Shown: one piece after another, positions 25,176 to 47,637 of the stretch
How the letters are laid out: each line of letters starts with the position of its first letter
Numbering within the stretch: the stretch's first letter is position 1
Source: Candidatus Caribbeanibacter nitroreducens
GTDB lineage: Bacteria; Gemmatimonadota; Gemmatimonadetes; Palauibacterales; Palauibacteraceae
Length of the DNA stretch: 64,000 nt
Assembly (NCBI GenBank): GCA_947581645.1
Contig: CANPVF010000159.1
Location: 2,904 to 66,903 of the forward strand
Reading direction: 5' to 3'
Notes under the pieces: generated by a model
The model's database searches: none
Seen by the model: only the letters and a program-made list of their open reading frames with translations
What the model was told of the DNA's origin: nothing
Made by a program: the position numbers and the translations under genes

Positions 25176-26582
25176 TCAGGGTTGCACGGACGGGTGGCCG
25201 GTGGGCAGCGACCGCCACCGCGGGGGCACCGCCGGATGTCCCGACGGCAGCTCGCCCCGGACGGTCGAGACGGCCGGAAGGCCGCCGGCCCGGCCTGTCG
25301 CCCGCACGCCGGGGTGTCCCTCCGGCAGACCGGACGCCGCCACCGTCGTGTCGCCGACGCTCATTTCCGGGTGGTCCCCGGGCAGCTGGCGGCCCGGCTC
25401 GGCGCCGGCGATGTCCGCGTGGCACGCGCCGCAGTTGCTGCCCTCCACCTCCCATCCGTGGGCGTCGTGGCAGGCCGCGCAGTCCTCCAGCTTCACCCCG
25501 GCCAGCCCGCGGTGGAAGGGCGTCAGGGTGTCCGGGCTCGCATGGCAACCGGCGCCCGTGCAGGTGGCGAACGCCGCCGCCGGCTGCTCCTGCGCGTGCG
25601 GATCGTGGCACTGGCCGCACCCGGGGCCGTGGGGGTCCTCGCCCACCTGCACCGTCTCCATCTCCTCCTCCATCTCGTGGCACGCCAGGCACTGCCTGCG
25701 GGACGGGCTGATGGCCACGCGGGCGGTATCCAGCGCCGCCCGCTCCGGGGCCGGCGCCGTGAACTCGTGGCACCCGAGACAGTGGAACGTGGTCTGGGAG
25801 GAGGCCATCTCGCCCAGGACGATCTCCGTGTCGCTCTCGGCGTGGCAGTCCGAGCCCGCACAGGTCTGGCTCGCCGGCACGAACTCGTGGACCTCCTCCC
25901 CGTGGCAGGTGACGCACATGACCTCCTCCAGCGCGGAGGAGTCGGACTCAAGGTGGATCCGATGTCCCGCCGTGGACGCTATGCGCTGCCAGGTGCTGTC
26001 CGGGTCCGCCTGGATGTGGCACTCCGTGCACCGCTCGTTCGGCACCGGGGCGTGCCCCCCGATCTCCTCGGGCCGCTCCAGGACCCAGAGGTAGACCTGC
26101 CGCATGCTGGCGCTGATGGGCTGCTGGTGGCAGTCGTGGCACTCGAGCTGGGCGTGCTCGCTGGCCGTGAACCGCTCGAAGGAGTCGCTCATCACGTGGC
26201 AGGAGACGCAGAAGGCGTTCTCGTGCTGCGTGTAGTTCCAGGCCTCCTGGCCGAACCAGGCCGCCCCGGTGACGAAGATCACCACGACCAGCCCCATGGC
26301 GGCCTGGACGGTGGCCGGCCGGGTCCGGATCCACTCCCAGATCTCCAGGCGCCGGTTCCAGAGGAAGACGGCCAGCCACACCGCGACGATGACGCCGAGC
26401 ACGGCCCCGCCGATCTGGATCCACTGGGGGACCTCGGAGAAGAAGAAGCGGAGGACCTCGGCGAGCCCGCCGGGAAGCGGGGCGCCCAGCTCCTCCCCGG
26501 GTCGCCCGTGGGGGATCGGCTGCTGCACCTGCTGCAGGGTCAGGGCCGCGTCCTGCAGGGTCGGTACCCGCGAGAGCATCAT
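25176..26582 (-). CDS. membrane-anchored multihaem cytochrome c, NapC/NirT/NrfH-like quinol dehydrogenase module plus extended multihaem domain (~11 haems)
   Basis: N-terminal TM helices then AFCVSCHVM...CHDCH (NapC/NirT-type). Nine canonical CxxCH motifs (CVSCH, CHDCH, CTECH, CVTCH, CLGCH, CLACH, CGQCH, CAACH, CGACH) plus two CxxxxCH (CAGSDCH, CTGAGCH). Confidence 0.8.
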   Translation of the reverse strand: MMLSRVPTLQDAALTLQQVQQPIPHGRPGEELGAPLPGGLAEVLRFFFSEVPQWIQIGGAVLGVIVAVWLAVFLWNRRLEIWEWIRTRPATVQAAMGLVVVIFVTGAAWFGQEAWNYTQHENAFCVSCHVMSDSFERFTASEHAQLECHDCHQQPISASMRQVYLWVLERPEEIGGHAPVPNERCTECHIQADPDSTWQRIASTAGHRIHLESDSSALEEVMCVTCHGEEVHEFVPASQTCAGSDCHAESDTEIVLGEMASSQTTFHCLGCHEFTAPAPERAALDTARVAISPSRRQCLACHEMEEEMETVQVGEDPHGPGCGQCHDPHAQEQPAAAFATCTGAGCHASPDTLTPFHRGLAGVKLEDCAACHDAHGWEVEGSNCGACHADIAGAEPGRQLPGDHPEMSVGDTTVAASGLPEGHPGVRATGRAGGLPAVSTVRGELPSGHPAVPPRWRSLPTGHPSVQP

Positions 26583-26708
26583 GGCTGCCTCCTCTTCTCA
26601 CGCCGGGCCCGACGGCCAGCGGCCTCCACCGCGGGCACTGGCATCCTTCGAGGCGCGGCACAACAATGTTCAGCCGTCCGTATTCCGTCTACCACAAGAA
26701 ACCCCTGC

Positions 26709-27653
26709 ATGTCGACCGCCTCCCCGTCAACCGAGGTGCCCACCCGGCGCGACGTCTGGGTCCGGATGCTCATCTACCCGCGGCACACCCTGCCCACCGC
26801 GCTGGGGCCGGTCGTGGTGGCCGCGGGACTGGCCCTCCACGACGGGATGTTCGCCCCCGGCGCGGCGGTCGCCGCCCTGGCCGCCGGGTGGCTCATCCAG
26901 CTCGGCGGAGTCATCGCCGACAACTACCACAACCTCCGGCGGCACCCCGACGATCGCGAACATCCGCTCCTGGTCCGGGCCCTGGAGGCCGGCGTCGTGG
27001 ATCTCCGGCTCCTGGCCCGGGCCACGGCCGGCTGCTATCTGCTGGCCGCGCTGCCCGGCGCCTACCTGGTATGGGTCGGTGGTCTCCCGATGGTGGCCCT
27101 CGGTGTCGCCAGCGCGGCCGCCAGCCTCGCCTATTCCTCCGATCCGCTGCGACTCGGCGACCGTGGCCTCGGTGATCCCCTCTTCTTCCTCTTCTTCGGG
27201 CTCGTCTCGGTCTGGGGCGCCTACTACGCCCAGGCCGCGGCGACGCTGGGAGGAGCGTTCCCGGCGGAGGCGCTGACGCCGGAGTCCCTGGTGGCGAGCC
27301 TCCCCATGGCGGCCCTGATCACGAACATCCTCCTCATCGACAACATCCGCGACCTCCGCTTCGATCGCGAGAAGGGCGAGCGGACGCTGGCCGTGATCAT
27401 CGGCCGCGACTGGACCGAGGTGGAGATGGGCGTCCTCACCGCCCTGGCGTACGCCGTGCCGTTCTGGTTCCTGACGCGAGCGGATCACGGCCCGGCGCTC
27501 CTCCTCCCCCTGCTCACGGCCCCCTTCGCCGTGGTGATCCTCCGGAGGGTGCGGGGGGCGGATCACTGGAAGGATCTCGTGCCGCTCACGCCCCGGGCCG
27601 GTCAGCTCGTCGTGGCCTACGCGGCCCTCTTCGCCCTGGGCCTGGCCCTCTGA
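26709..27653 (+). CDS. menA: 1,4-dihydroxy-2-naphthoate polyprenyltransferase (UbiA superfamily)
   Basis: UbiA-family Asp-rich motifs (NYHNLRRHPDD; second-half DNIRDLRFDREKG) and ~8 TM helices. Only the last 315 codons of the long + ORF 24039..27653 are coding. Confidence 0.75.
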   Translation: MSTASPSTEVPTRRDVWVRMLIYPRHTLPTALGPVVVAAGLALHDGMFAPGAAVAALAAGWLIQLGGVIADNYHNLRRHPDDREHPLLVRALEAGVVDLRLLARATAGCYLLAALPGAYLVWVGGLPMVALGVASAAASLAYSSDPLRLGDRGLGDPLFFLFFGLVSVWGAYYAQAAATLGGAFPAEALTPESLVASLPMAALITNILLIDNIRDLRFDREKGERTLAVIIGRDWTEVEMGVLTALAYAVPFWFLTRADHGPALLLPLLTAPFAVVILRRVRGADHWKDLVPLTPRAGQLVVAYAALFALGLAL

Positions 27654-27675: not shown

Positions 27676-28317
27676 CTACGGCCCCACCAGGCCGAGCCAG
27701 TAGATCCCGACGAACACCGAGAGCGCGGAGCAGCCCGCCAGCAGACCCGCGTAGGCGTTCCGCCCCGAGAGGGAGAGTCGCCGCCCGGCGTGACCCATCA
27801 GGGCGGCGTAGATCGACATCGCCGCCACGGTGCCGGCGGCGAAGAAGAGCAGATAGGCGATCGAGCCGAGACGGGTGGGAAGCGCCAGGGCCGGAAGCAC
27901 GCCCAGGACGTGGCCGGCCCCGGCCGTGCCGTGCAGCAGGCCGACGGCGAACGCCGCCCGTCCTTCCCGCCCGTGCAGCGCCTCCTGGTGACGCTCCGCG
28001 TCGTCGGGGCTCCGGAGGACGCGGATCACCGCGGTCAGCGCCCACAGCCCCACCGCCACGAGGCTGATGCCGACGGCTCGCTCGCTCCACGCCGTCACCT
28101 GCTCCATGGGGAGCGCCTCGCGCAGCAGCGCCGCGGCCAGCCCGATCACCATCACGCCGCCGGCGTGGCCGACGCCCCACCGGAATCCGGTGCGCCACGC
28201 TCCCGACTGGCGACTGGCGGCCAGGGGCGAGACCACCGCCAGGTGGTCGGCGCCGGCCAGCACGTGGCCGGCCCCCGCCACCAGCCCGATCAGCGCCCCC
28301 TCCAGCACGACGGTCAT
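27676..28317 (-). CDS. hupE: HupE/UreJ family nickel transporter
   Basis: 213 aa with 6 TM helices and the HupE signature H-x5-DH (GAGHVLAGADHLAV). Internal repeat with second His cluster (HGTAGAGH). Last gene of the hydrogenase operon, with a 4-bp overlap with the upstream gene. Confidence 0.7.
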   Translation of the reverse strand: MTVVLEGALIGLVAGAGHVLAGADHLAVVSPLAASRQSGAWRTGFRWGVGHAGGVMVIGLAAALLREALPMEQVTAWSERAVGISLVAVGLWALTAVIRVLRSPDDAERHQEALHGREGRAAFAVGLLHGTAGAGHVLGVLPALALPTRLGSIAYLLFFAAGTVAAMSIYAALMGHAGRRLSLSGRNAYAGLLAGCSALSVFVGIYWLGLVGP

Positions 28318-29162
28318 CGGGACACGTCCCCGCCGTCGAACTCGGGGCTCCGCTTCTCGAAGAACGCCGCCAGGCCCTCGGCGAAGTCCTCGCCGTCGGC
28401 GACCCGGGACAGGTTCTCCAGCTCGTCGTCCATGTGGTAATCCAGCTGGTCGATACCCGCCGCCTGGTGCACCAGCCGCTTCGCCACGGCGTAGGCCTCC
28501 GTGGGCCCGGAGGCCAGCTCCCGGGCCACGCTCCGCAGCTCGTCGTCGAACGCCTGCGCCGGCCACACGCGATTCACCAGCCCCATCTCGGCGGCCTCCG
28601 CGGCGTCGAGCCGGGGGTTCAGGAACACCAGCTCCAGCGCCTTCCGGAGGCCCAGGAGCCGGGGGAGGAAGAACGTGGAGCTCTCGGCCCCGGTGAGGCC
28701 CGTCTTGTGGTACGCCCACTCGAAGCGGGCGTCCTCCGAGGCGAAGACCAGGTCGCACGCCATGGCGATGCCGAAACCGCCGGCGGCCGCCATGCCGTCC
28801 ACACCGGCCAGGAAGGGCTTCGGCGCCCGCTTGATCTCCGAGATGGCGCTGTGGATGTACTCCAGGATCTCCTTGAAGGCGCGGCCGTGGCCGCCCTCCT
28901 CGGCGCCGACGCCCTCGGGCTGCAGATAGCCGAAGTCCTCGTCGTCGCCGTGGTCGCGGACGTACTTCAGGTCGGCGCCGCTGCAGAACACGCCGCCGCT
29001 CCCGCGGAGGATCACGCACCGGACCTCCTCCTCGCGGGAGAACTGGAGCCCGGCCTTCCGGAAGTCCTTCGCCGTGGCCACGTCCAGGGAGTTGAAGCGG
29101 TCCGGCCGGTCGATGGTGATGATCCCCACGGCACCGTCCCGCTCCATCCGGATGTTCTCCAT
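28314..29162 (-). CDS. enoyl-CoA hydratase/crotonase-fold protein, candidate C-terminal half of a split HypX
   Basis: Crotonase oxyanion motif VFCSGADLKY; 282 aa. Start at MENIRMERDG. The upstream in-frame extension is Gly/Arg junk. Lies between hypE and hupE directly after a formyltransferase gene. Confidence 0.7.
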   Translation of the reverse strand: MENIRMERDGAVGIITIDRPDRFNSLDVATAKDFRKAGLQFSREEEVRCVILRGSGGVFCSGADLKYVRDHGDDEDFGYLQPEGVGAEEGGHGRAFKEILEYIHSAISEIKRAPKPFLAGVDGMAAAGGFGIAMACDLVFASEDARFEWAYHKTGLTGAESSTFFLPRLLGLRKALELVFLNPRLDAAEAAEMGLVNRVWPAQAFDDELRSVARELASGPTEAYAVAKRLVHQAAGIDQLDYHMDDELENLSRVADGEDFAEGLAAFFEKRSPEFDGGDVSR

Positions 29163-29179
29163 GCCCTCCGCCCGCGCCG

Positions 29180-30040
29180 TCACGGTCGTCCCCCGCCCAC
29201 CACCGCCCGGAGGACGGCCGCCGACCCGGCGGGGCGCGCACCGGCGCGCCGCTCGTCCAGCTCCACCGGGGCCGGCGCACCGTCCACCGCGGCCCGACCG
29301 TCGCCCGTGACCCGGATCCGCCCCGCGGCCTCGAGCTCCAGGGTCCGGTCCAGGAGGGCTCCCCAGCTCGCCCTCATCATCCACTCCCGCTGGGCGTAGG
29401 CGTACGCCTTCAGCAGGTCCTCGGCCTCCCACTCACGCGCATCCGTCACCATCGGGTGGACCGGGAACGACCGGGAGAGCAGGAGCGGCGGCCCGACGTC
29501 CACCCGCTCCGTGGCCAGGTGCACGGTGCTTCGCGTCTCGGGCTCCCCGGCGAAGACCGCATCCCGTGTGGAGCGGAGCCCCCGGTAGAGCGGCACGCCG
29601 TCCCCGTCCCTGAGGGTCAGGTCGGCATCGTGGACGTTGAACACGCGGTCCGGGAACGCCGCCAGGAGCTCCCCGGTGGCGATCCACAGGTAGCCGCACA
29701 TGAGCACGGCCTCGGCGCCGGAAGCGTGGAGCCGGTCGACCAGGCGCCGGTCGAAGGCCTCCCGTGCTCCCCGGTCGCCGACGTCCGCCCCGCGCCGGCG
29801 GCAGAAAGCCTCGGGGCAGCGGACCTCCGTGGCGACGCCCGCCGACTCCGCCGCCGGGAGGGCGGAGCTCTCCGGGTCGCTGGCCACCACGGCCACGATC
29901 CGGTAGGGCGCGCCGCGTCCGGCGCTCCGCTCCAGCAACCGCTCGAGCCCCGGCGCACGGGCCGAGGTGAGCACCGCGACGCGCAGCGGGTCCCCCGCCG
30001 TGCGCCGTCCGTTCGTCGTACCGCCGGACACGTTCTCCAC
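29180..30040 (-). CDS. formyltransferase-fold protein (PurN/Fmt-like), candidate N-terminal half of a split HypX
   Basis: Aligns to PurN (VAVLTS...LERLL; CGYLWIATGELLAAFPDRVFNVHDADL with the conserved N-x-H; HLATERVDVGPPLL). GTG start (VENVSGG) 2 nt after the hypE stop. Confidence 0.65.
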   Translation of the reverse strand: MENVSGGTTNGRRTAGDPLRVAVLTSARAPGLERLLERSAGRGAPYRIVAVVASDPESSALPAAESAGVATEVRCPEAFCRRRGADVGDRGAREAFDRRLVDRLHASGAEAVLMCGYLWIATGELLAAFPDRVFNVHDADLTLRDGDGVPLYRGLRSTRDAVFAGEPETRSTVHLATERVDVGPPLLLSRSFPVHPMVTDAREWEAEDLLKAYAYAQREWMMRASWGALLDRTLELEAAGRIRVTGDGRAAVDGAPAPVELDERRAGARPAGSAAVLRAVVGGGRP

Positions 30041-30042: not shown

Positions 30043-31113
30043 CTAGCAGATCCGGGGGAGCGGTTCGCCCTGGGGCTCCGTCACCAGTCGCCGGCCGATG
30101 CCGGTGTCCAGCACCACCCGGCCCGGGTGCTCCGCGGCGACCTCGCCGACGATGGCGGCCCGTCCGCCGGCCGGATGCTCCCGGATGGCTTCCAGCACCG
30201 CCTCCGCCGACTCCGGCCGCACCCCCACGACCGCCTTCCCCTCGTTGGCGATGTGGAAGGGATCGAGCCCCAGCATCTCGGCCGCGGACCGCACCACGTC
30301 GGAGACGGGCACCGCCCTCTCCTCGATCACCACCGAGACGCCGGCCTTCTCGGCCATCTCGTGCAGGGCGCTGGCCACGCCGCCGCGGGTGGGGTCCTTG
30401 AGCGCGGTGATTCCGCCCCCGGCGGCCGCGAGCGCCCGGGCCACCAGGCCGTTGATCGGGGCCACGTCGGAGACCAGGTCGCCCCGGAGGTCCAGCTCGT
30501 GCCGGAGGGCCATGAGCGCGATCCCGTGGTCGCCGATGTCCCCGGTGAGGATGATCCGGTCGCCGGGCCGGAGCCCCGCGTCCCGGACCAGGGGCTCGGC
30601 GAACCCGACGCCGGTGGTGTTGATCACGACGCCGTCGATCTCGCCGCGGCCCATGACCTTGGTGTCTCCGGTGACGATCCTCGTCCCCGCCTCCCGACAC
30701 GTCTCCCGCATGGAGGCCTGGATCCGCTCCAGCTCCTCCCGGGCCAGCCCCTCCTCCGCGATGACCGAGGAGGTGAGCCCCAGCGGCTCGGCGGCCCCCA
30801 TCATGGCCAGGTCGTTCACCGTCCCGGCCACGGCCAGCCGGCCGATGTCGCCGCCCGGGAACCGGACGGGGTGGATCACGTGGGAGTCGGTGGTGAGGAC
30901 CAGCCAGCGGCCGTCGGGCAGACGGAAGGCGGCCCCGTCGTCCATGGCGGCGAGCCCCACCTCCCCGTCGCGCTCGTCCAGGAAGCCCGCCGCCAGCGTC
31001 TCCTCCACCAGCTGCCGCATGGCGCCGCCGCCGGCGCCGTGCTTCAGCGTGATCCGCTCGACGGCCGTGGCCGCCCCTCCGGCTCCTCCGTTTCTTCGGG
31101 CGGGTCCGCTCAT
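30043..31113 (-). CDS. hypE: hydrogenase expression/formation protein HypE
   Basis: AIR-synthase-like fold; conserved C-terminal ...PRIC. Start at MSGPARRNGG with a 4-bp overlap with hypD. Confidence 0.9.
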   Translation of the reverse strand: MSGPARRNGGAGGAATAVERITLKHGAGGGAMRQLVEETLAAGFLDERDGEVGLAAMDDGAAFRLPDGRWLVLTTDSHVIHPVRFPGGDIGRLAVAGTVNDLAMMGAAEPLGLTSSVIAEEGLAREELERIQASMRETCREAGTRIVTGDTKVMGRGEIDGVVINTTGVGFAEPLVRDAGLRPGDRIILTGDIGDHGIALMALRHELDLRGDLVSDVAPINGLVARALAAAGGGITALKDPTRGGVASALHEMAEKAGVSVVIEERAVPVSDVVRSAAEMLGLDPFHIANEGKAVVGVRPESAEAVLEAIREHPAGGRAAIVGEVAAEHPGRVVLDTGIGRRLVTEPQGEPLPRIC

Positions 31114-32294
31114 AGGTCCGGGTGTCCTCCGTACTGGTGCCAGATCTTGCAGGTGCCCTCGCTGCTCACCATGCAGGCGCCCACCGGGTTCTCCGGCGTG
31201 CACTCCTCGCCGAACAGCGAGCAGTCGTGCGGCGAGGAGCGGCCGGCCATGATGTCGCCGCAGATGCAGGCCTGCGTGAGCGGCGTCGGCGAGCCCCGCC
31301 GGAGCGACCCGACGTCGATGTCGAAGCGCCGGCGGGCGTCGACGCCGGCGTACTCGTCCCTGAGGCGCAGGTTGCCGTTGGGGACGTGGGCGATGCCCCG
31401 CCACTTGCCGCCGGTGGGCCGGAACACCTTCCACAGCTGCTCCTGGGCGTTCCGGTTGCCCTGCTCGGTGACGCACCGGGGGTACATGTTCACCACCCGC
31501 GGATCGTCGTCCCGGACGAGCTCCACCAGCTGGACCAGTCCCGCCAGCACGTCCAGCGGCTCGAAGCCGGCCACCACCACCGGGATGCCGTGCCGGTCCA
31601 CGAAGCGCTCGAAGAGCGCGGAGCCGGTGATCGTGGCGGCGTGCCCCGCTGCCAGGTATCCCTCGACCCGGGTGTGGGGCATCTCGGCCACGATCTCCAT
31701 GACCGGCGGGATGTACTTGTGGGCCGAGAGCACGGAGAAGTTGTCCGGCGGTTCGGCCAGCACCACCGCGGCCGTGGCCACGGCCGTCGTCTCGAAGCCG
31801 CTGGCGAAGAAGACCACCTCGTCGTCCGTGTCCCGCGCCAGCTCCACCGCCTGCGAGGCGCTGTAGACCACGTCCACCCGGGCCCCGTCGGCCTGGGCAT
31901 CGGCCAGCGACTGGACGGTGCCGGGCACATGGAGCATGTCGCCGTAGGTGGCGACCCGGACGCCCTGCCGGGCCAGGGCCACGGCCTCGTCGACCTCGGG
32001 CATGTCGGTGACGCAGACCGGGCAGCCCGGCCCCATGATCACGTCGAGCCCCTGCGGGAGGATGGTACGGATCCCGTACTTGGCGATGGACTGCTCGTGG
32101 CTCCCGCAGACGTGCATCACCGAGACCCGGTCGCGGTCCACCTCGCCCACGACTCGCTCCAGGGCTTCGGCCAGCGCCCGTGCCTTCTCGGGATCCCTGA
32201 ACTCGAGCTCGCGCGCCGACCGGCCCGCGGCGCCGCCGTCGGGTCCCTCCGTCGGTGGCGCGGCGGTCGGCTGTCCTCCGGGCGCGTCGCTCAT
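31110..32294 (-). CDS. hypD: hydrogenase formation protein HypD
   Basis: CGSHE (CGxH), GPGCPVC and C-terminal CxxC...C motifs. Confidence 0.9.
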   Translation of the reverse strand: MSDAPGGQPTAAPPTEGPDGGAAGRSARELEFRDPEKARALAEALERVVGEVDRDRVSVMHVCGSHEQSIAKYGIRTILPQGLDVIMGPGCPVCVTDMPEVDEAVALARQGVRVATYGDMLHVPGTVQSLADAQADGARVDVVYSASQAVELARDTDDEVVFFASGFETTAVATAAVVLAEPPDNFSVLSAHKYIPPVMEIVAEMPHTRVEGYLAAGHAATITGSALFERFVDRHGIPVVVAGFEPLDVLAGLVQLVELVRDDDPRVVNMYPRCVTEQGNRNAQEQLWKVFRPTGGKWRGIAHVPNGNLRLRDEYAGVDARRRFDIDVGSLRRGSPTPLTQACICGDIMAGRSSPHDCSLFGEECTPENPVGACMVSSEGTCKIWHQYGGHPDL

Positions 32295-32617
32295 CGGTTC
32301 CCCTCCGGACCGCGGGGCACGCCCGGCGTCGGGTCGGACGACGGCATGCTCGCCTGTTCGATCTCGTCGCGGACGTCCTCGGCCATCATGTCTCCTCCGG
32401 CCTCCTCCAGGAGCTCGCTGTAGAGGGCCAGCGTCTCTCCGATCTCGGCCTCCGGGATCTTGCGGATCGCGAAGCCCACGTGATTCAGGATGTAGTCCCC
32501 CGGCGACACCGGCTCGTCCACGACATCGAGCCGCGTCTCGCGCCGCACGCCCCAGAAGTCCACGACGGCGACGTCGCCCTTCACCTCGACCACCTTGCCC
32601 GGCACGCCCAGACACAT
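32291..32617 (-). CDS. hypC: hydrogenase assembly chaperone HypC/HupF family (with ~25-aa C-terminal extension)
   Basis: MCLGVPGKVVEV N-terminus (essential Cys2). ATGA overlap with hypD. Confidence 0.8.
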   Translation of the reverse strand: MCLGVPGKVVEVKGDVAVVDFWGVRRETRLDVVDEPVSPGDYILNHVGFAIRKIPEAEIGETLALYSELLEEAGGDMMAEDVRDEIEQASMPSSDPTPGVPRGPEGNR

Positions 32618-32631
32618 GTTCTCGCTCCTCT

Positions 32632-33324
32632 CTAGCTGGTGCCCAGCGACCCGCGGGCGTAGTTCCCGCTCCCGACTTCGGAACGGAGGAAGTCGCACCA
32701 CTCCTCCATGCCCTCGCCGTTCCGGGCGGACGTGAAGAAGAAGCGGAGGTCGGGATTGACCTCCCGCGCGTAGCTCACCGCCCGCTCGACGTCGAAGTCC
32801 AGGTGCGGGAGCAGGTCCATCTTCGTGATCACGGCGTACCGGGCGAGCCGGAACATCTTCGGGTACTTCACCGGCTTGTCCTCGCCCTCGGTCACCGAGA
32901 ACAGGACCACCTTCTCCTGCTCGCCCAGGTCCCAGCTCGCCGGGCAGACCAGGTTGCCCACGTTCTCGATGAACAGGAGCCGGGTCTCGTCGAGGTCCAG
33001 CGCGTCCAGCGCCTCGGAGACCTGACGTGCGTCCAGGTGGCACGCTCCGTCGGTGACCACCGCCTGGACGAGCCTCGGCGTGAGCCGCGCGATGCGGTTG
33101 GCGTCGTTCTCCGTCTGGACGTCGCCGGTGACGACGGCGATGGGGAACTCGGCGTCCAGCCGCTCCAGCGTGGCCTCCAGCAGGGCCGTTTTCCCGGATC
33201 CGGGCGAGGAGACGAGGTTGTAGGTCGTCACCCCCGCATCGGTGAGCCGGCGCCGGACGTCGGCCGCGAGCTCGTCGTTCTTCTTCATCACTTTCTCGCG
33301 CACCTGAATGCGGCGAACCGTCAT
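32632..33324 (-). CDS. hypB: hydrogenase nickel incorporation GTPase HypB
   Basis: G1 motif SSPGSGKT, CH metal site (GACHLDAR), G3/G4 motifs. No N-terminal CxxCGC/His-rich Ni-storage motif. True start may be the internal MKKNDELAAD. Confidence 0.9.
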   Translation of the reverse strand: MTVRRIQVREKVMKKNDELAADVRRRLTDAGVTTYNLVSSPGSGKTALLEATLERLDAEFPIAVVTGDVQTENDANRIARLTPRLVQAVVTDGACHLDARQVSEALDALDLDETRLLFIENVGNLVCPASWDLGEQEKVVLFSVTEGEDKPVKYPKMFRLARYAVITKMDLLPHLDFDVERAVSYAREVNPDLRFFFTSARNGEGMEEWCDFLRSEVGSGNYARGSLGTS

Positions 33325-33734
33325 CGGACACCCTTCCCCTGGTTCGAGTCTGCTCTGCTACCGTCTCCGGCACCGCGCGGCGGTCCGGCCTCGGAGGGCA
33401 GGGGCGCGTCGCCCAGCGGGCTCGGCCCGTTCCCGCCCCCGTCCGCCACCGCGGCCGTGCCGTCCCGGTCTCCGTCTCCGTCCTCGATCCCGTCCTCCAC
33501 GTCGATCCACGCCAGCCGCAGCACGTCCCCCCGGCAGCGCTCCAGCACCGGCCGGGCGTCGTCGAAGGGAGGCTCCGTGAGCACCGCCTGGAGACAGAAC
33601 TCCAGGGCGTCGATCACCACGCCCGCGCGATCGCCCACCTCCACGCCCACGGCCGAGACGCGCGGCAGGAGCTCCCGGTCCACCTGCTCGGCGGCCAGGC
33701 GTCCCACCTCCATGGCGAGGCTCATCTCGTGCAC
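33321..33734 (-). CDS. hypA: HypA-like hydrogenase nickel metallochaperone with degenerate zinc site
   Basis: N-terminus MHEMSLAMEV (M-H-E Ni-binding motif). Only one Cys pair region (LERCRGD); no second CxxC. Asp/Gly-rich tail. 4-bp overlap with hypB. Confidence 0.6.
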   Translation of the reverse strand: MHEMSLAMEVGRLAAEQVDRELLPRVSAVGVEVGDRAGVVIDALEFCLQAVLTEPPFDDARPVLERCRGDVLRLAWIDVEDGIEDGDGDRDGTAAVADGGGNGPSPLGDAPLPSEAGPPRGAGDGSRADSNQGKGVR

Positions 33735-33771: not shown

Positions 33772-34362
33772 TCACGCGCGACCCGGCTCGCCCGCCACGG
33801 GCTCCTCCGCGGGCCGGTGTTCGGCCCCGACGCCCCAGCTCCGGAGCCGGTCCACGGCGCGGATGACCAGGTCGTCGAGGCCGGCCACGGCCTCGGGGCT
33901 GAGGGCCGTCTCGGTGGCCAGCTCGGCGGGCTGGAGGCCCACGGCCACCGTCTCCTCCGGGAGCGTCCCCCGGAGCGAGGCCAGGGCCAGGACCTCCCGG
34001 ATGCCCACCTGGTGCGTCGAGATCTTGCCGTCCAGGAAGAGCGGGAGGTCGTCCCGCTCCAGGACCACCGTCTCGCCGGGCTCGTCGCCCACGTCGATGG
34101 CGTCCAGCAGGAGCAGCCGGTCGGCGTCCTCCACGGCGGGCAGGAGCATCATGCCCCACGTGCCGCCGTCCAGCAGCTCCACGTCGGGAGAGAGGCTCCA
34201 CTCCTCCCGCAGCCGGGCCAGCGCCGCCAGCCCGATCCCGTCGTCCGCCAGCAGGGGGTTGCCCAGCCCGATCACCACGACCCGCGAGCCGGCGCCGGGC
34301 GGGGCGTCTCCGGGTCGGGGCCGGCGTCCTCCACCGGCCTCACCCGGGTGCTCACTCCTCAT
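33772..34362 (-). CDS. hupD: hydrogenase maturation protease (HyaD/HupD family)
   Basis: VVVIGLGNPLLADDGIGL with conserved Asp/His metal ligands. Confidence 0.85.
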   Translation of the reverse strand: MRSEHPGEAGGGRRPRPGDAPPGAGSRVVVIGLGNPLLADDGIGLAALARLREEWSLSPDVELLDGGTWGMMLLPAVEDADRLLLLDAIDVGDEPGETVVLERDDLPLFLDGKISTHQVGIREVLALASLRGTLPEETVAVGLQPAELATETALSPEAVAGLDDLVIRAVDRLRSWGVGAEHRPAEEPVAGEPGRA

Positions 34363-35128
34363 CGACGAACTCCTGGTCCCGGGGCAGGAACCGGCCGCCG
34401 CTCACCATGGAGGAGACGGTGCCCGTCGATTCCGTCAGCTCCGCCCGGATGGTCAGGTAGACGTGGATCGGAATGAAGATGAGGAAGACCCACGTCAGGA
34501 CGTGGTGCACCAGGCGCGTGTACTGGACGCCGCCCAGGAGCCCGTTCACCCAGGAGAAGGCCGCGTAGAAGAAGCCGTCGGGATTGGCCTGTCCGTACAT
34601 GGCGAAGCCGGTGAGCACCATCACCACGGTCACCGCGTACAGGCCGGTGTAGGAAATCTGCTGGATGGGGTTGTGCCCCATGTACTCCGGCTCCTCGTCC
34701 CCGACCATCATGTAGTGCTTCACGATCTTCCACATGTTGACCCAGTCCTCCCGTCGGAACGGGAAGAGGGCCCGCCAGCTCTCGAACTTGTTGCCGACGA
34801 AGAGCCAGTAGACCCGGACGATGCCGGTGGCCACCAGCAGGCCGGCCGCCGCGAAGTGGATGAAGCGCATCCACCCCATCAGGTAGTGGTTGGCCGGCTC
34901 GCCAGTGGTCATGAAGTACGGGGCGCCGATGTAGAAGCCGGTGACGACGAGGGCGACGATGGCCACGGCGGCCACCCAGTGCATGGCGCGAATGGGCCAG
35001 TGCCACAGGTAGACCCACTCGTAGTCGCCCTCGGGCGGCCTCGGGATGGCGGCCAGACCGGGCTGCTCCGTCCGCTCGGGCTCGTGCGTGCTCTGGCGTC
35101 CCCCGCGTTCCTCCCGCTCGGTGCTCAC
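34352..35128 (-). CDS. hupC: Ni/Fe-hydrogenase b-type cytochrome subunit (HyaC/HupC/CybH)
   Basis: 4 TM helices with conserved haem-ligand His (WHWPIRAMHW, RFIHFAAAG, HHVLTWVFL). Confidence 0.85.
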   Translation of the reverse strand: MSTEREERGGRQSTHEPERTEQPGLAAIPRPPEGDYEWVYLWHWPIRAMHWVAAVAIVALVVTGFYIGAPYFMTTGEPANHYLMGWMRFIHFAAAGLLVATGIVRVYWLFVGNKFESWRALFPFRREDWVNMWKIVKHYMMVGDEEPEYMGHNPIQQISYTGLYAVTVVMVLTGFAMYGQANPDGFFYAAFSWVNGLLGGVQYTRLVHHVLTWVFLIFIPIHVYLTIRAELTESTGTVSSMVSGGRFLPRDQEFVDEE

Positions 35129-36936
35129 GACGCACCTCCCGCCTCCACCTCATCGGCGGCGTCCGAGGGTCGACCGACCTCGTCGTCGGCCACGTCCGGA
35201 GGGCTCCCGAACCCCAGGCCGGTACCGTGGTCCAGCCGCACCTTCGTCACGACGTTTCCGCGGTCGTCCAGGACGTGGGCCCCGCAGGCCATGCAGGGGT
35301 CGAAGGAGTGGACCGTCCGGAGCAGCTCGATCGGCTCCTCGGGATCGACCAGCGGGTGGTTGTCCACCAGGGAAGCCTCGTAGGGCCCCATCTGCCCCTC
35401 GGCGTCCCGCGGCGAGCAGTTCCAGGTGCTGGGCACGACGCACTGGTACTTCGAGATCTCGCCGTTCTCGATGCGCACCCAGTGGCCCAGCGAGCCCCGG
35501 GCCGCGTCGCAGTAGCCGTATCCGCGTGCCGACTCCGGCCACGTCTCCGGCTCCCACTTCTCGCCGTTGAACGTTTCCGTGTCGCCGCCCCGGATGCGCT
35601 CCACGAGCCGGTCGTACCAGTCCTCCATCTTGCGGGCCAGCAGCACCGTCTCGGCGCCGCGCGCGGCCGTCCGTCCCAGGGTGGAGAAGAGGGCCTCGGG
35701 GCCCACCTCGAGCCGACCCAGGGCCTCGTCGACGATGGCCTGGATGTCCTCGTGGCCCGAGGCGTAGCCCACCAGCATCCTGGCCAGGGGTCCGACCTCC
35801 ATGGGGCGCCCGTCGTAGCGGGGCGCCTTCATCCAGGTGTACTTCTCCTCGTCCTGGAGGTACTCCCAGGGCGGCTCGGGGCCCGTGTAGTTCGGCGTCG
35901 TCTCGCCGTCGTAGGGGTGGAGCCCCGTTCCCGGTCCGTCCTCGTAGCTGTACCAGGAGCTGTCCACGTACTCCCTCACCAGCGAGGGGTCGTACTCGTG
36001 CACCGTGGACAGGTCGTTGTCGAGGATGATCCCCCGCGGGAAGTACAGGGAGTCGAGGTCGCGGACGTCGTTCTCGGGGAATTCGCCGCACGCCATGTAG
36101 TTGGGCACGCCGCCGCCGATGGACGCCCACTCCTTGTAGAACGACGCGATGGTCAGCAGGTCCGGCCAGTACACCTGCTCCACGAAGCGCCGGGCCCGGC
36201 CGATCATGTCGTGGATGTCCGTGAGGCTCTCGGCGTTGATCGTGGCCGTGTCGTCCAGGTTGATGGCCGAGGCCATGCCGCCCACGACGAAGTTCGGGTG
36301 CGGGTTCTTGCCGCCGAAGATCGCGTGGATGCGGATCACGTCCCGCTGCCAGTCCAGGGCCTCCAGGTAGTGGGCCACCGCCATCAGGTTGGCCTCCGGA
36401 GGCAGGCTGTAGGCCTCGTGCCCCCAGTAGGCGTTGGCGAAGATCCCCAGCTGGCCGGACTCGGCGAACGTCTCCAGCCGGTCCTTGATCTCCCGGAAGT
36501 AGTTCCGGGAGTGCTTCGGCCAGGGGGAGACCTCTCCGGCGAGATCCGCGGTGGCAACCGGATCCGCCTCCAGGGCGCTCATCACGTCCACCCAGTCCAG
36601 GGCGTGGAGGTGATAGAAGTGGATCACGTGATCCTGGATGGTCTGGATGCCGTGTACGATGTTCCGGATGATGTTGGCGTTCGGCGGAATCCGGATGTCC
36701 AGGGCGTCCTCCACGGCACGGAGCGACGCGATGGCGTGCACCACGGTGCACACCCCGCAGATCCGCTGGGTGAAGGCCCAGGCGTCGCGGGGGTCCCGCC
36801 CCTCCATGATGGTCTCGATGCCCCGGAACTGGGTGGACGAGGCCCAGGCGTCCTGAATCCGTCCGTTCTCCTGCCGGGCCTCGATCCGGAGATGTCCCTC
36901 GATCCGCGTGATCGGGTCGACGACGACTCTAGGCAT
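35125..36936 (-). CDS. hupL: [NiFe]-hydrogenase large subunit (group 1, membrane-bound uptake type)
   Basis: L1 motif RIEGH...RICGVC, C-terminal DPCMACGAH, followed by an unusually long 47-aa extension. Confidence 0.95.
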   Translation of the reverse strand: MPRVVVDPITRIEGHLRIEARQENGRIQDAWASSTQFRGIETIMEGRDPRDAWAFTQRICGVCTVVHAIASLRAVEDALDIRIPPNANIIRNIVHGIQTIQDHVIHFYHLHALDWVDVMSALEADPVATADLAGEVSPWPKHSRNYFREIKDRLETFAESGQLGIFANAYWGHEAYSLPPEANLMAVAHYLEALDWQRDVIRIHAIFGGKNPHPNFVVGGMASAINLDDTATINAESLTDIHDMIGRARRFVEQVYWPDLLTIASFYKEWASIGGGVPNYMACGEFPENDVRDLDSLYFPRGIILDNDLSTVHEYDPSLVREYVDSSWYSYEDGPGTGLHPYDGETTPNYTGPEPPWEYLQDEEKYTWMKAPRYDGRPMEVGPLARMLVGYASGHEDIQAIVDEALGRLEVGPEALFSTLGRTAARGAETVLLARKMEDWYDRLVERIRGGDTETFNGEKWEPETWPESARGYGYCDAARGSLGHWVRIENGEISKYQCVVPSTWNCSPRDAEGQMGPYEASLVDNHPLVDPEEPIELLRTVHSFDPCMACGAHVLDDRGNVVTKVRLDHGTGLGFGSPPDVADDEVGRPSDAADEVEAGGAS

Positions 36937-36939: not shown

Positions 36940-38154
36940 TCACTCCCTCTCTTCCGCGTTCGTTTCGCCCCTCTCGGGCGAGCTCTCGCCGCCGCCCTGG
37001 TCCGCCACCGGCAGCTCCCGTCCCTTCTTCTTTTCCCGCATGCGCTGCACGCCCGTGGCGATCGCGTGCGCGCCCACACCGGCGGCCGCCCCCACGGCCA
37101 GCCCGAGGCCGATCTCGTCGGCCGTACGCTCGACGCCGAACCCGGCCACGCCGGGCAGCCTCTCGTAGAAGGGGGTCATGGAGTCCCAGAAGTAGGGCTC
37201 GGTGCACCCGATGCACGGGTGGCCGGCGCCGATGGGCCAGTCCGTGCCGGAGTTCCACTGGAAGATCGGGCATGGGGAGAACGTCGCCGGCCCCTTGCAG
37301 CCCACCTCGTACAGGCACCAGCCCCGCCGCGCGCCCTCGTCGTCGAACTCCTGCACGAACTGCCCGGCGTCGTAGTTGGCCCGCTTCGGGCACTGGTCGT
37401 GGATGCGGGCGCCGTAGGCGAAGAGCGGCCGCCCCTCGCCGTCCAGGTCCGGCATGCTCCCGAAGGTGAGGTAGTGCACCAGGGTGGCGGTGACGGTGTC
37501 CGCGATGGGCGGACAGCCCGCGAGGTTCACCACCGGCCTGTCCGTGACGATCTCGTCCGTCCGGACCGCACCGGTGGGATTCGGATCGGCGGCCTGGACG
37601 CTGCCGTAGTGGGCGCAGGCGCCCACCGCGATCACGCCGGCGGCGCCCTCGGCCGCCTCCACCAGAACGTCGTGGGCGGTGCGTCCCCCCATCGTGGTGT
37701 AGACGCCGCCCTCGTTCATGGGCACCGAACCGGTGACAACGAGCAGGTACTCGCCCCGCTTCTCCTCCATGGTCTGCTGCAGGACTTCCTCGGCCCGATG
37801 TCCGGCCGCCGCCATCAGCGTGTGCTGGTAGTCCAGCGACACCTTGTTCAGGATCAGGTCGCCGATGGTCGGCGACTCCGACCGGAGGACGCTCTCCACG
37901 CAGCCCGTGCACTCCTGCAGCTGCAGCCAGATGACGCTGGGCCGCTGCTGCTCGGAGAGGGACTGCATGATCGCGGGACCCATGGCGCTCCCGACCCCGA
38001 GGATCACGCCCATCTCTCCGCAGTAGGTCAGGAATTCCCGGCGGTTGATGCCCTGGCGCTCCAGGTTCTCGCCCAGGGTCTCGTCGTTCTTCCACGCGAA
38101 CTCGTTGGGGACGAACATCGCTGCCTCCCGGAATGATGGACGCTCCGGCGACAT
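36940..38154 (-). CDS. hupS: [NiFe]-hydrogenase small subunit (Tat-exported, C-terminal membrane anchor)
   Basis: Twin-arginine motif NRREFLTYCG, proximal-cluster motif QECTGCVES (CTGC, standard type), distal HxxC...C cluster, C-terminal TM helix GLGLAVGAAAGVGAHAIATGV. Confidence 0.9.
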   Translation of the reverse strand: MSPERPSFREAAMFVPNEFAWKNDETLGENLERQGINRREFLTYCGEMGVILGVGSAMGPAIMQSLSEQQRPSVIWLQLQECTGCVESVLRSESPTIGDLILNKVSLDYQHTLMAAAGHRAEEVLQQTMEEKRGEYLLVVTGSVPMNEGGVYTTMGGRTAHDVLVEAAEGAAGVIAVGACAHYGSVQAADPNPTGAVRTDEIVTDRPVVNLAGCPPIADTVTATLVHYLTFGSMPDLDGEGRPLFAYGARIHDQCPKRANYDAGQFVQEFDDEGARRGWCLYEVGCKGPATFSPCPIFQWNSGTDWPIGAGHPCIGCTEPYFWDSMTPFYERLPGVAGFGVERTADEIGLGLAVGAAAGVGAHAIATGVQRMREKKKGRELPVADQGGGESSPERGETNAEERE

Positions 38155-38503: not shown

Positions 38504-38712
38504 GTATCCGGCGGGCAACCATCCCCCGCCCACGGGACAGGCGGGTTGATCGAGGAAAAAGGGCTTGATTAGCTTGTGGGCGGTCAATGTTCTGGGCCGC
38601 GTCCGTCACAGGATGCTGACGCCCTGGGAACGGGGAGTCCGGCGTCTCCTGCGGGAGAGCGCTCGGTGGGGACGGACTGCCGTGAGACGGGAAACAGACG
38701 AAGGAGTGGGCC

Positions 38713-40293
38713 ATGACGACGGAGAGCGGGAAACGGATCCGTAGAGCCCTTCTTCTCCTGCCGGTCGCCGCAGCACTCGCGCTGACCGGGTGCGTGGACG
38801 AGAAGGTCGTCTTCCAGGAGCGTCCCCTCTTCGAGCAGCCCGCCAGCGCGGCCGAGGGCTTCCTGGGCTACAGCCAGCAGGACGCCAAGCTCACGGTCTG
38901 CGGCAACTGCCACGTCGGCACCCAGAACGCCTGGGAGGAGTCGGGCCACGCCGCCGCCTGGGAGGGGCTGCAGAGCAGTGGGGGCGCCCAGGACTTCTGC
39001 GAGGGCTGCCACACGGTGAACGAGCGGGGCAACTCCTTCGAGGGCGACGCCGGCTTCGCGGCCATGGGCTCCGACCGCTACCACGACGTCCAGTGCGAGT
39101 CGTGCCACGGCCCGGGCCAGACCCACGTCGAGAACCCCGACGGAAACCAGCCCCTGGCCAGCATCCAGGCCGGGGTGGACCTGGAGACCGGATGCGGTGA
39201 GTGCCACTCCGGCGCCCACCATCCCTTCACCAACCAGTGGGCCCAGTCCGCCCACGGCATCGCCTCGGTGAAGGACCGGCCGTACGTGAGCGGCTCCTGC
39301 CTGGACTGCCACGAGGGCGAGGCCGCCATGCAGAACACGTTCGGCGAGACGGCCAACTTCGTCGGCAAGGACGACGACCAGCGCTCGTCCATCACCTGCG
39401 CCGTCTGCCACGATCCCCACGGCTCCGAGAACGCCGCTCAGCTCCGCGCCCCGGTGGACGTGGCCAGCGAGGAGCATCTCTGTGTGCGGTGCCACTCGCA
39501 GCGGGGCACGCCCGGACTGACGCAGCCCAACCTGCACGGCCCCCACGGCTACCAGGGCAACCTGGTGCTGGGCGAGGACATCGGGTGGATCCCGCCCAAC
39601 GCGGACCTCAGCGGCACCTTCGCCTCCACCCACGGTACCGAGGGCAACCCGGAGCTGTGCGCCACCTGCCACGTGGCACAGCGGACCATCACCGACGAGG
39701 AGGGCGACTTCCAGGTGGAGGCCGTGGGCCACACCTTCGAGGCCACCCCCTGCCTGGACGACCAGGGCCTGCCGCGTGAGAACTGCACCATCCAGGAGCA
39801 GAACTTCGAGGCCTGCGCCACCAGCGGGTGTCACGGCAACGCCGAGACGGCCCGGAACCTGTTCGTCACGTCGAAGAACGGAATCAACGACCTGCTGGAT
39901 CAGCTCTGGACGGACACCGACGACGATCACAACCTGGAGACCACCGACGACGGACTGCTGCCCCAGGTTCTGGCCGCGCAGGGCGAGGGCGAGATCAACC
40001 CGGCCGACAGCACGTTCACCACGGCCGAGGGCGCGCTGTGGAACGCCCAGGTGGCGCACACCCAGGACCGGCTGTACTGGGGCGACTTCACCGTCGGCTC
40101 GAACCCGACCCACTTCGGGGCCCACAAGGGCAGCGGCGACGGCGTCCACAACCCGTTCCTGCTGGAAGCCCTGCTCAGGGCCTCCATCGACGCGGTGGAG
40201 AACGAGTACGGCGTGACCGCCAGCGCCACCGTCCAGCGCTTCTCCACACCTCCGCCCGGGATCGACGTCAACCTCAGCAGCGGCTCCGAGTAA
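38713..40293 (+). CDS. lipoprotein multihaem cytochrome c (~9 haems)
   Basis: Lipobox LALTGC. CGNCH, CEGCH, CESCH, CGECH, CLDCH, CAVCH, CVRCH, CATCH plus CATSGCH (CxxxxCH). Confidence 0.85.
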   Translation: MTTESGKRIRRALLLLPVAAALALTGCVDEKVVFQERPLFEQPASAAEGFLGYSQQDAKLTVCGNCHVGTQNAWEESGHAAAWEGLQSSGGAQDFCEGCHTVNERGNSFEGDAGFAAMGSDRYHDVQCESCHGPGQTHVENPDGNQPLASIQAGVDLETGCGECHSGAHHPFTNQWAQSAHGIASVKDRPYVSGSCLDCHEGEAAMQNTFGETANFVGKDDDQRSSITCAVCHDPHGSENAAQLRAPVDVASEEHLCVRCHSQRGTPGLTQPNLHGPHGYQGNLVLGEDIGWIPPNADLSGTFASTHGTEGNPELCATCHVAQRTITDEEGDFQVEAVGHTFEATPCLDDQGLPRENCTIQEQNFEACATSGCHGNAETARNLFVTSKNGINDLLDQLWTDTDDDHNLETTDDGLLPQVLAAQGEGEINPADSTFTTAEGALWNAQVAHTQDRLYWGDFTVGSNPTHFGAHKGSGDGVHNPFLLEALLRASIDAVENEYGVTASATVQRFSTPPPGIDVNLSSGSE

Positions 40294-47630: not shown

Positions 47631-47637
47631 GACCGGC

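Follow-up and report, generated by a model that had tools for sequence, protein, structure and literature searches.

A formyltransferase of the PurN branch and a HypX-like crotonase, encoded as separate genes next to hypE, as a candidate two-protein equivalent of HypX

Two adjacent genes in the hydrogenase maturation cluster of an uncultured marine member of the Gemmatimonadota encode a stand-alone formyltransferase (ORF1) and a stand-alone crotonase (ORF2) that, judging from sequence comparisons, would constitute a two-protein functional equivalent of HypX with a non-orthologous transferase, a reading to which we give a probability of around 0.6. HypX is the sole enzyme known for making the carbonyl ligand of [NiFe] hydrogenases, which it derives from 10-formyl-tetrahydrofolate by way of formyl-CoA. 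The two-gene form is apparently undescribed, as no such form was found described in the literature on HypX and formyl-CoA decarbonylase, on Gemmatimonadota and on Acidobacteriota.

The window, that is, the whole stretch of 64 kb that was analysed, contains the following genes around the pair, all of them on the minus strand and listed in the order of transcription:

36940..38154, minus strand: [NiFe] hydrogenase small subunit (Pfam Oxidored_q6 and NiFe_hyd_SSU_C)
35125..36936, minus strand: large subunit (603 aa) of a [NiFe] hydrogenase of the membrane-bound group 1 type (related to A. vinosum MBH, 3myr)
34352..35128, minus strand: hydrogenase cytochrome b subunit (Ni_hydr_CYTB in orthologous loci)
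33772..34362, minus strand: maturation endopeptidase of hupD/hyaD type (Pfam HycI in orthologous loci)
33321..33734, minus strand: hypA (window ORF and related loci)
32632..33324, minus strand: hypB (window ORF and related loci)
32291..32617, minus strand: hypC, beginning MCLGVPG (window ORF and related loci)
31110..32294, minus strand: hypD (72-93% identity to HypD ORFs of related loci)
30043..31113, minus strand: hypE (TIGR02124, 380.6 bits)
29180..30040, minus strand: ORF1, stand-alone formyltransferase of PurN/PurU type (Formyl_trans_N)
28314..29162, minus strand: ORF2, stand-alone crotonase (Pfam ECH_1, 167 bits)
27676..28317, minus strand: hupE/ureJ-like membrane protein, putative Ni permease (HupE_UreJ_2, weak)

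The TAG stop of hypE (30043-30045) is followed by the GTG start of ORF1 at 30040, whose 286 codons end in a TGA at 29180-29182, and by ORF2, with 282 codons between an ATG at 29162 and a TGA at 28314-28316, which shares an ATGA with the start of the hupE-like gene at 28317. With this start of ORF2 the two genes are 17 nt apart and lie in different frames ((30040-29162) mod 3 = 2). Public gene calls place the start of ORF2 at a GTG at 29183 (289 aa, P0241), in a GTGA overlap with the stop of ORF1, but the N-termini of the orthologues, with the consensus MxHIRMxRDGAVG, favour the ATG. For each ORF more than 100 close homologues of equal length exist, so both are real genes and not chance ORFs. 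The coordinates bear out the layout given in an initial annotation of this DNA (lengths, order, frames, spacing and packing with the hyp genes), in which hypE was also rightly named as a neighbour; the hupE gene that it placed on the other side is present, but its name rests on a weak Pfam HupE_UreJ_2 match of 17 bits, where the cut-off is 24.5. A hupE-like gene is also found 3' of the pair in six other loci (L003, L007, L024, L026, L029 and L030). No HypX, second PurN, second crotonase or hypF was found when the 64-kb window was searched for them.

The transferase family of ORF1 is present in 77 species-representative genomes. Seventy of its loci, in species-level MAGs of Gemmatimonadota and Acidobacteriota/Thermoanaerobaculia, have at least 900 nt downstream, and in 67 of these the crotonase gene follows directly, with a median gap of -4 nt, the two genes being separate and usually overlapping by 4 nt. 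Upstream of these 67 pairs lies hypE (64 loci) or hypD (3 loci). Two arrangements are found, hypC-hypD-hypE-transferase-crotonase and hypC-hypD-transferase-crotonase-hypE, the latter in L039, L044, L046 and L027, and its part from the pair to hypE also in L043 and L082; the pair thus occupies two operon positions within hyp clusters, which argues that it moves as a unit. Exceptions exist, such as a transferase gene without the crotonase (L077) and one outside any hyp context (L048). All carriers are uncultured MAGs.

The search for fused relatives found none: for each ORF, the 120 best-matching homologues, about 165-320 aa long, are all single-domain proteins, and the 150 representatives of 50% clusters that match the crotonase profile best include no true fusion either. 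Six candidates for fusions were rejected: the length of P0465, P0375 and P0439 (466-483 aa) comes from frameshifts in the gene calls, which mix in out-of-frame low-complexity sequence, and in P0372, P0406 and P0432 generic crotonases stand in tandem. Thus, the comparison of split and fused forms in related genomes that had been proposed in the initial annotation gave separate genes throughout, and the natural two-gene state claimed there holds across 67 independent assemblies. The proximity of the ORFs and their different frames could also arise from a sequencing or assembly frameshift within one fused gene, but this is excluded, as hundreds of metagenome contigs, along with those 67 species-level assemblies, carry separate genes of the same lengths, and as these homologues are single-domain and the long representatives are themselves frameshifted calls.

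ORF1 matches Pfam Formyl_trans_N (PF00551) with an E value of 4e-16, and this is its sole Pfam domain, Formyl_trans_C being absent. Three features stand out in it:

29618..29638, minus strand: N135-V-H137-D138-A-D140-L, the active-site motif, with an insertion of 8 residues specific to the family after it
29498..29500, minus strand: Asp181 (in VDVGP), equivalent to PurN Asp144 and HypX Asp109 by hhalign and MAFFT, conserved in 73/74 sequences
29375..29407, minus strand: family signature A-Y-A-Y-A-Q-R-E-W-M-M (residues 212-222), in the C-terminal helix at an insertion of 9 residues relative to PurN

The first motif, already noted in the initial annotation and located at the coordinates above, aligns with NIHPSLL of PurN and VVHP of HypX, and its residues are highly conserved: H137 in all 74 sequences, D138 in 73, N135 in 69, and D140 in 71/71 of the sequences with a residue at that position. 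R218 and W220 of the signature are invariant, and its use as a search pattern recovered 77 loci. The PurN fold and the catalytic Asn-x-His...Asp residues are thus accompanied by clear differences from PurN: the family has H-D-(A/S)-D-L plus the 8-residue insertion where PurN has H-P-S-L-L, carries the additional YAYAQREWMM stretch in its last helix, lacks the ACT domain of PurU and is encoded among hyp genes, not pur genes. ORF1 scores 77.2 bits with the PurN equivalog model TIGR00639 of NCBIfam, below its cut-off of 150.1. Moreover, SGNGSNL of PurN aligns with TSARAPGL, so that A-P-G takes the place of G-S-N, with Arg28 before it (70/74); the N-terminal G-x-G-S/T-N loop of PurN is the one that binds the phosphate of GAR in structures of the E. 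coli enzyme. As read from these motifs, the family keeps the catalytic residues for formyl-THF but is not a GAR transformylase.

ORF2 matches Pfam ECH_1 with an E value of 6e-49 and shares 60-93% identity with its 72 orthologues. It falls under every NCBIfam cut-off, the best score being 174 bits with alternative oxepin-CoA hydrolase (cut-off 300), with PaaG at 159 bits (TIGR02280, cut-off 345; other curated cut-offs, 253-400). The crotonase fold and the oxyanion-hole motifs are present, and two segments are of importance:

28968..28988, minus strand: oxyanion-hole and CoA-thioester motif F59-C-S-G-A-D-L65, with F59 and S61-L65 invariant in 72 sequences
28671..28724, minus strand: active-site segment F-E-W-A-Y151-H-K-T-G-L-T-G-A-E160-S-S-T-F, aligned with HypX

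The FCSGADL motif had likewise been noted correctly in the initial annotation. In the second segment, Tyr151, Glu160, Glu148 and Lys153 are found in 72/72 orthologues. The catalytic acids of hydratases (Glu144/Glu164) or the Asp of PaaG are absent, and Tyr151 occupies the position of hydratase Glu144. Overall ORF2 is PaaG-like, much closer to 1,2-epoxyphenylacetyl-CoA isomerase and its relatives than to the C-domain of HypX, but it differs from them in the loop, which is G-A-E and not P-D-G (the Asp is lost and a Glu appears one position later), in around 15 additional residues after GADL, in the invariant FEWAY-x-K and in the lack of paa genes nearby.

Homologues of the two proteins carry the JGI names PurN and PaaG isomerase, and among proteins of solved structure PurN and PaaG-like enzymes match best, as would be expected if ordinary purN and paaG genes, serving purine and phenylacetate or fatty-acid metabolism, were merely located in the operon. 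This is extremely improbable, because the scores are far under the curated cut-offs (77 against 150 for PurN, 159 against 345 for PaaG), the G-S-N of PurN and the catalytic Asp of PaaG are replaced, there are no pur or paa neighbours, and the hyp linkage is kept across two phyla and two operon arrangements.

The crotonase carries the likeness to HypX. Its Tyr151 and Glu160 align with Tyr439 and Glu449 of C. necator HypX, equivalent to Tyr416 and Glu426 of A. aeolicus, by BLASTP, hhalign, hmmalign and MAFFT, so the conservation of the HypX active site that had been proposed as a check is confirmed for this half. Mutation of these HypX residues of C. necator produces a HypX-minus phenotype (PMC6802093). 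The match of ORF2 to the C-domain of HypX by hhalign has a probability of 99% (E 2.7e-18). Within the set of the 150 nearest representatives of 50% clusters, the Tyr and Glu pair and the G-A-E loop are confined to the 26 whose scores place them in the family, the neighbours having the PaaG-type P-D-G; the Tyr alone is not diagnostic, being combined with Gly at the 160 position in 72 of the 150. The nearest relative without the Glu (P0371) shows no hyp linkage, and P0397, one of the 26 with both residues, also has none within the 4.7 kb of its contig. A profile of the HypX C-domain gives the 72 family members scores of 44-68 bits, with a median of 60; for the 113 nearest generic crotonases the median is 38 and the maximum 57, so that the two ranges overlap. 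In crude neighbour-joining trees, with saturated distances set to a cap, bootstrap support for grouping the HypX C-domain with the family is 143/200 and 102/150 (68-72%), falling to 73/150 without the active-site columns.

By contrast, ORF1 lies outside the Fmt/FDH/ArnA-like branch and, being of PurN/PurU type, has no recognisable or specific similarity to the N-domain of HypX. Regarding the triad His74, Asp80 and Asp109 of HypX, the first and third residues align with His137 and Asp181, whereas Asp80 aligns by hhalign with Tyr152, so that there is no aligned Asp, the family having its own Asp138 and Asp140 beside the His. HypX (HoxX) of C. necator, R. leguminosarum and A. aeolicus (PDB 6J0P) shares with the pair the order of formyltransferase and crotonase, and in C. 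necator pHG1 hypX occupies the same slot, directly 3' of hypE. However, HypX combines Formyl_trans_N, Formyl_trans_C and ECH_1 in one chain with a length of about 570-640 aa, its 120 best relatives (566-639 aa) all being fused, and the pair consists of two polypeptides, the first without Formyl_trans_C. The HypX carriers among the relatives found are Betaproteobacteria and Aquifex, whereas the pair is found in MAGs of Gemmatimonadota and Acidobacteriota.

In the initial annotation the locus had been interpreted as a split HypX, a natural domain split of the fused protein. The superfamilies, their order, the slot after hypE and the Tyr/Glu pair of the crotonase stand, but a HypX origin of the transferase does not, as this half was recruited from another branch of its superfamily, and the pair is therefore not a fission of the hypX gene. 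A true fission, in which each ORF would be the orthologue of one half of a fused ancestral hypX, is in agreement with identical superfamilies, order and operon position and with the grouping of the crotonase half in the trees, and is very unlikely given that the transferase half contradicts it. On sequence grounds, the crotonase is probably the constant part in evolution, related to the C-domain of HypX, and the transferase is assigned as a non-orthologous replacement, from the PurN branch here and from the Fmt/FDH branch in HypX.

A single metagenome contig (L089, from SRR12113385) carries hypD and hypE followed by a stand-alone formyltransferase and a stand-alone crotonase, the two genes being separate and 1 nt apart. 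Its crotonase belongs to the same Tyr/Glu family (42% identity to ORF2), whereas its transferase is of Fmt type (Formyl_trans_N and Formyl_trans_C) instead of PurN type, scoring 76.7 bits with the profile of the HypX N-domain against 18 bits with that of the transferase family of the window. This supports that the pairing of a formyltransferase with a crotonase of the family recurs with a different transferase, and it is this type that would deserve the name of split HypX. A metagenome scan with this Fmt-type transferase produced 58 relatives (36-46% identity), none of them beside hyp genes, and so L089 remains a single example; crotonase matches were nearby only in L126, where the match was generic, of 27% identity and on the opposite strand.

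As a two-protein equivalent of HypX, the pair would act as follows. The transferase would transfer the formyl group of 10-formyl-THF to the thiol of CoA, by means of His137 and Asp181 plus Asn135 and the family-specific Asp138 and Asp140, CoA as the acceptor being our guess. The resulting formyl-CoA would be held in the oxyanion hole of the crotonase and decarbonylated with Tyr151 and Glu160, and the CO would be handed to the HypC-HypD scaffold with regeneration of CoA. The overlap of stop and start codons in most species points to joint translation, so that the two proteins probably form a complex and act as such. In HypX, CoA is permanently bound in a cavity built from both domains of one chain (PMC6802093). 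We infer the chemical steps, the CoA acceptor, the complex and the link to oxygen discussed below.

Alternatively, the pair could serve hydrogenase maturation with other chemistry, such as a PurU-like hydrolysis, transfer to another formyl acceptor, or action of the crotonase on a different acyl-CoA or acyl-carrier intermediate. The hyp linkage is strong whereas the CO-making chemistry is deduced, the enzymes of the PurN branch use amines or water as formyl acceptors and are not known for thiol formylation, and several precursors have been proposed for CO without HypX (PMC12134894). We consider this unlikely while leaving it some weight, since a formyl-THF enzyme beside a CoA-thioester enzyme with the exact Tyr/Glu pair of HypX is hard to explain otherwise, and in L089 this crotonase family has a partner from a second formyltransferase type, unrelated to the first.

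If the pair does replace HypX, enzymatic synthesis of the CO ligand would reach two further phyla of hydrogen oxidisers that are abundant in soils and in the sea, and the automatic names PurN and PaaG isomerase could be corrected for several hundred database entries. Separate transferase and decarbonylase proteins would allow the half-reactions and the hand-over of formyl-CoA to be studied in isolation, and a HypX function that can use a different formyltransferase would be useful for engineering the aerobic production of hydrogenases. A wider reading, which we hold tentatively and at somewhat less than even odds, is that in uncultured Gemmatimonadota and Acidobacteriota a two-protein CO-ligand synthase is the standard accessory of hydrogenase maturation, with a crotonase that is a conserved decarbonylase ancestral to the C-domain of HypX. 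There would then have been two or more separate recruitments of the formyl donor partner, of PurN type in the present pair and of Fmt type in HypX and L089, from which it would follow that HypX arose by fusion and not the pair by fission, and the route would perhaps not be limited to oxic conditions. If so, it could bear on the source of CO in organisms without HypX, regarded as the most pressing open question of the field (PMC12134894).

The best solved relative of the hydrogenase large subunit is the A. vinosum MBH (3myr, 770 bits), followed by Hyd-5 and Hyd-1. The small subunit has a Tat motif (RREFL) and a C-terminal membrane anchor, and its proximal cluster shows the standard CTGC, whereas O2-tolerant enzymes of group 1d have a motif of six cysteines there. 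The order to which the organism belongs has been described as facultatively aerobic (PMC10469786). It is plausible, as proposed in the initial annotation, that the HypX-like pair goes along with a hydrogenase exposed to O2, although the CTGC motif does not point that way. The pair is also common in Thermoanaerobaculia, and for this reason the route may extend beyond oxic conditions.

The hydrogenase and hyp genes of the window, whose G+C content is 72%, are all on the minus strand and densely packed, in the following order:

36940-38154, minus strand, [NiFe] hydrogenase small subunit (first)
35125-36936, minus strand, large subunit (second)
between the large subunit and hypE, minus strand, cytochrome b, then hupD, hypA, hypB, hypC and hypD
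30043-31113, minus strand, hypE
29180-30040, minus strand, ORF1, formyltransferase (FT; Pfam Formyl_trans_N, E 4e-16)
28314-29162, minus strand, ORF2, crotonase (ECH; Pfam ECH_1, E 6e-49)
27676-28317, minus strand, hupE-like gene (last)

ORF1 starts 2 nt after the hypE stop, and ORF2 starts 17 nt after the ORF1 stop in a different frame, or overlaps it by 4 nt if the alternative GTG start of public gene callers is used; the ORF2 stop is in turn overlapped by the start of the hupE-like gene. This layout and the Pfam matches confirm the two ORFs described in the initial annotation, whose quoted motifs (NVHDADL, FCSGADL) are present in the sequence. Cluster members assign the region to a metagenome-assembled genome of Candidatus Palauibacterales (Gemmatimonadota). 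NCBI annotates ORF1 as "formyltransferase family protein" (MDP2498612.1) and ORF2 as "enoyl-CoA hydratase-related protein" (MDP2498611.1), and no curated model names either of them. The hyp operon in the window is hypA-B-C-D-E without hypF (30043-33734), a gene that most related loci of Gemmatimonadales have between hypB and hypC; no match to a related HypF was obtained by tblastn in the whole 64 kb, and hypF is likewise missing at that place in the closest relative (L007, FT 76% identical).

The possibility that a sequencing frameshift had broken one fused gene was addressed through homologues. ORF1 has more than 200, the best 120 of which are 165-322 aa long (nearly all 237-322 aa) with Formyl_trans_N only, and the best 120 of ORF2 are 272-310 aa long. 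In three distant relatives (52-60% identity), the hydrogenase genes are followed by hypA, B, F, C, D and E, and these by separate formyltransferase and crotonase genes. A scan for the FT family signature in 185,579 species, with one genome per species, detected 77 loci, all in MAGs, labelled as Gemmatimonadota (36), Acidobacteriota (36, mostly Thermoanaerobaculia), or single bins of Nitrospiria, Actinomycetes and Halodesulfurarchaeum, together with two contigs of one unclassified bin. Of the loci with 900 nt or more of sequence downstream of FT, 70 in number, the crotonase followed directly in 67, at a median distance of -4 nt, a stop/start overlap typical of translational coupling. FT is preceded by hypE in 64 loci and by hypD in 3. 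Two arrangements are found, hypC-D-E-FT-ECH and hypC-D-FT-ECH-hypE, the latter complete in four loci (L039, L044, L046, L027) and represented by its FT/ECH-hypE part in the shorter contigs L043 and L082. No FT-crotonase fusion was found in any surveyed locus, and frameshifted gene calls account for the few longer proteins in the set of database representatives. The frameshift is therefore excluded, and the two genes behave as a single unit linked to the hyp genes.

Some loci depart from this pattern. In the bin labelled Halodesulfurarchaeum (L048, 4311-5171) the FT homologue adjoins a DUF169 gene, with no hyp genes, and in an Acidobacteria MAG (L077, 5977-6657) FT is flanked by hypF and hypB, and no crotonase is present within 6 kb. 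In one Gemmatimonadota lineage (L003, 10827-11018; L004, 861-1052), gene calling places a 63-aa ORF that lacks a Pfam match between FT and crotonase, and the Thermoanaerobaculia MAG SMAG_U1737 carries the whole hypF-C-D-E-FT-ECH-hypB block twice, on different contigs (L070, L071).

Canonical HypX is strongly conserved (558 bits between the C. necator and A. aeolicus proteins), and among its at least 8000 relatives the best 120 are 566-639 aa long, with ECH_1, mostly Formyl_trans_N and often Formyl_trans_C. ORF1 showed nothing HypX-specific (BLASTP E 3.9), and its sequence matches in the PDB were PurN and PurU, never HypX. The ORF1-family profile scored 88.5 bits with E. coli PurN, 66 with PurU, 24 with ArnA, 22 with Fmt and 2.8 with the formyltransferase half of HypX (HypX-N), whereas the HypX-N profile gave 38 with Fmt, 31 with ArnA, 14 with PurN and -0.8 with ORF1. 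In addition, ORF1 remains collinear with PurN as far as the C-terminus, without the Formyl_trans_C subdomain present in Fmt, ArnA and HypX. Judged by these comparisons, ORF1 is not the HypX N-domain, nor is it an ordinary PurN: it scores 77 bits with the PurN model (cut-off 150), and in its family the PurN loop G-S-N is replaced by A-P-G, with a near-invariant Arg just before (70/74), H-P-S-L-L by H-D-(A/S)-D-L followed by an 8-residue insertion, and the last helix bears an invariant insertion, YAYAQREWMM. The catalytic residues are kept (His137 in 74/74, Asp181 in 73/74, Asn135 in 69/74).

ORF2 is PaaG-like in overall similarity, its best PDB matches being PaaG-type enzymes, and its family profile gave 168 bits with PaaG, 106 with PaaF, 99 with MenB and 57-66 with the crotonase half of HypX (HypX-C). 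In A. aeolicus HypX, Tyr416 and Glu426 (C. necator Tyr439 and Glu449) adjoin the CoA thiol, and mutation of this pair produces a HypX-minus phenotype (Muraki et al., PMC6802093). Tyr151 and Glu160 of ORF2 align with this pair by BLASTP, hhalign (probability 99%), MAFFT and hmmalign and, like Glu148 and Lys153, are invariant in 72 orthologues.

When 1.84 billion cluster representatives were searched with a profile, a clear gap in score separated the ORF2 family (449 to about 225 bits) from a plateau of generic crotonases. Among the 150 nearest representatives Tyr at position 151 is common in PaaG-like neighbours (72/150 with Tyr plus Gly at position 160), but these carry the loop P-D-G, and G-(A/S)-E is found only in the family and in HypX; the nearest relative without the Glu (P0371) is not adjacent to hyp genes. 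The HypX-C profile scored 44-68 bits (median 60) with the family and 12-57 (median 38) with the 113 nearest generic crotonases, and in phmmer C. necator HypX-C scored no higher than 38 bits against PDB crotonases, with a median of 39.6 (maximum 48.9) in the family. Neighbour-joining trees grouped HypX-C and the family together in 143/200 and 102/150 bootstraps, and in 73/150 without the active-site columns. These scores and trees are suggestive, not proof, of a common ancestry of the putative decarbonylase halves.

Taking HypX as the model (PMC6802093; PMC12134894), ORF1 would move the formyl group of 10-formyl-THF onto CoA, ORF2 would decarbonylate formyl-CoA through Tyr151/Glu160, and the CO would be delivered to the iron on HypCD. 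The sequences show the gene anatomy and the conservation of coupling and residues; that CoA is the acceptor, which products form, that the two proteins associate and that CO reaches HypCD are what we infer from the analogy, and we give this HypX-like route a probability of about 0.6. The main rival, by which the pair serves hydrogenase maturation through a different chemistry, draws on the facts that PurN-branch enzymes are not known to formylate thiols and that HypX depends on a CoA bound between the two domains of a single chain; we consider it rather unlikely. No description of a two-gene HypX-like pair was found in the searchable literature, and we rate the pair as an equivalent of HypX that has two components and is in part non-orthologous.

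P0370, the member of the family that lies closest to HypX-C in the tree, is encoded on a 3-kb contig of 50% G+C (L089):

224-2968, gene order hypD, hypE, stand-alone 291-aa Fmt-type transferase, crotonase 1 nt downstream

Its transferase has Formyl_trans_N and Formyl_trans_C; the HypX-N profile gives it 76.7 bits and that of the window's FT 18, so one crotonase family pairs with two unrelated transferase types. L089 is a second kind of two-gene HypX-like system, and the one that would properly be named split HypX. When metagenomes were scanned with this transferase, only unlinked relatives were found, so it is a single example. In the noisy long-read contig L091 (4368-6545), frameshifts hamper reading of a locus where a hypE fragment is directly followed, without an intervening formyltransferase, by a crotonase with the Tyr/Glu pair (P0366), and this by hypB.

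The hydrogenase belongs to the membrane-bound enzymes of group 1; among solved relatives the A. vinosum MBH (770 bits) is closest to it, and Hyd-5 and Hyd-1 come next. The small subunit (36940-38154) has the Tat motif RREFL, a C-terminal hydrophobic membrane anchor with a charged tail after it, and a CTGC proximal-cluster motif of the standard form with no extra cysteines, in contrast with the six-cysteine motif that marks group 1d hydrogenases. Cytochrome c oxidase genes lie a few kb away in two related loci, and Palauibacterales are described as facultatively aerobic and as having hydrogenases of groups 1c and 1f (PMC10469786). The O2-exposed hydrogenase put forward initially is a reasonable suggestion, to be taken with caution because the pair is abundant in Thermoanaerobaculia.

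The large subunit (603 aa, versus 571 aa in the L001, L003 and L005 orthologues) ends in a 49-residue tail after the DPCMACGAH motif (35125-35275), the last 34 or so residues being acidic and of low complexity, and its alignment to solved structures stops at residue 554. Two large multihaem c-type cytochromes with NapC/NirT-, c7- and c3-like matches flank the cluster (25179-26597, minus; 38686-40290, plus), a hint of periplasmic electron transfer in which quinone is not the only acceptor. The interval from the hupE-like gene to the multihaem cytochrome contains, on the opposite strand, a UbiA-family prenyltransferase gene (26727-27653, plus), and an operon for a V/A-type ATPase (subunits I, E, C, A, B) occupies 45150-52841 (plus).
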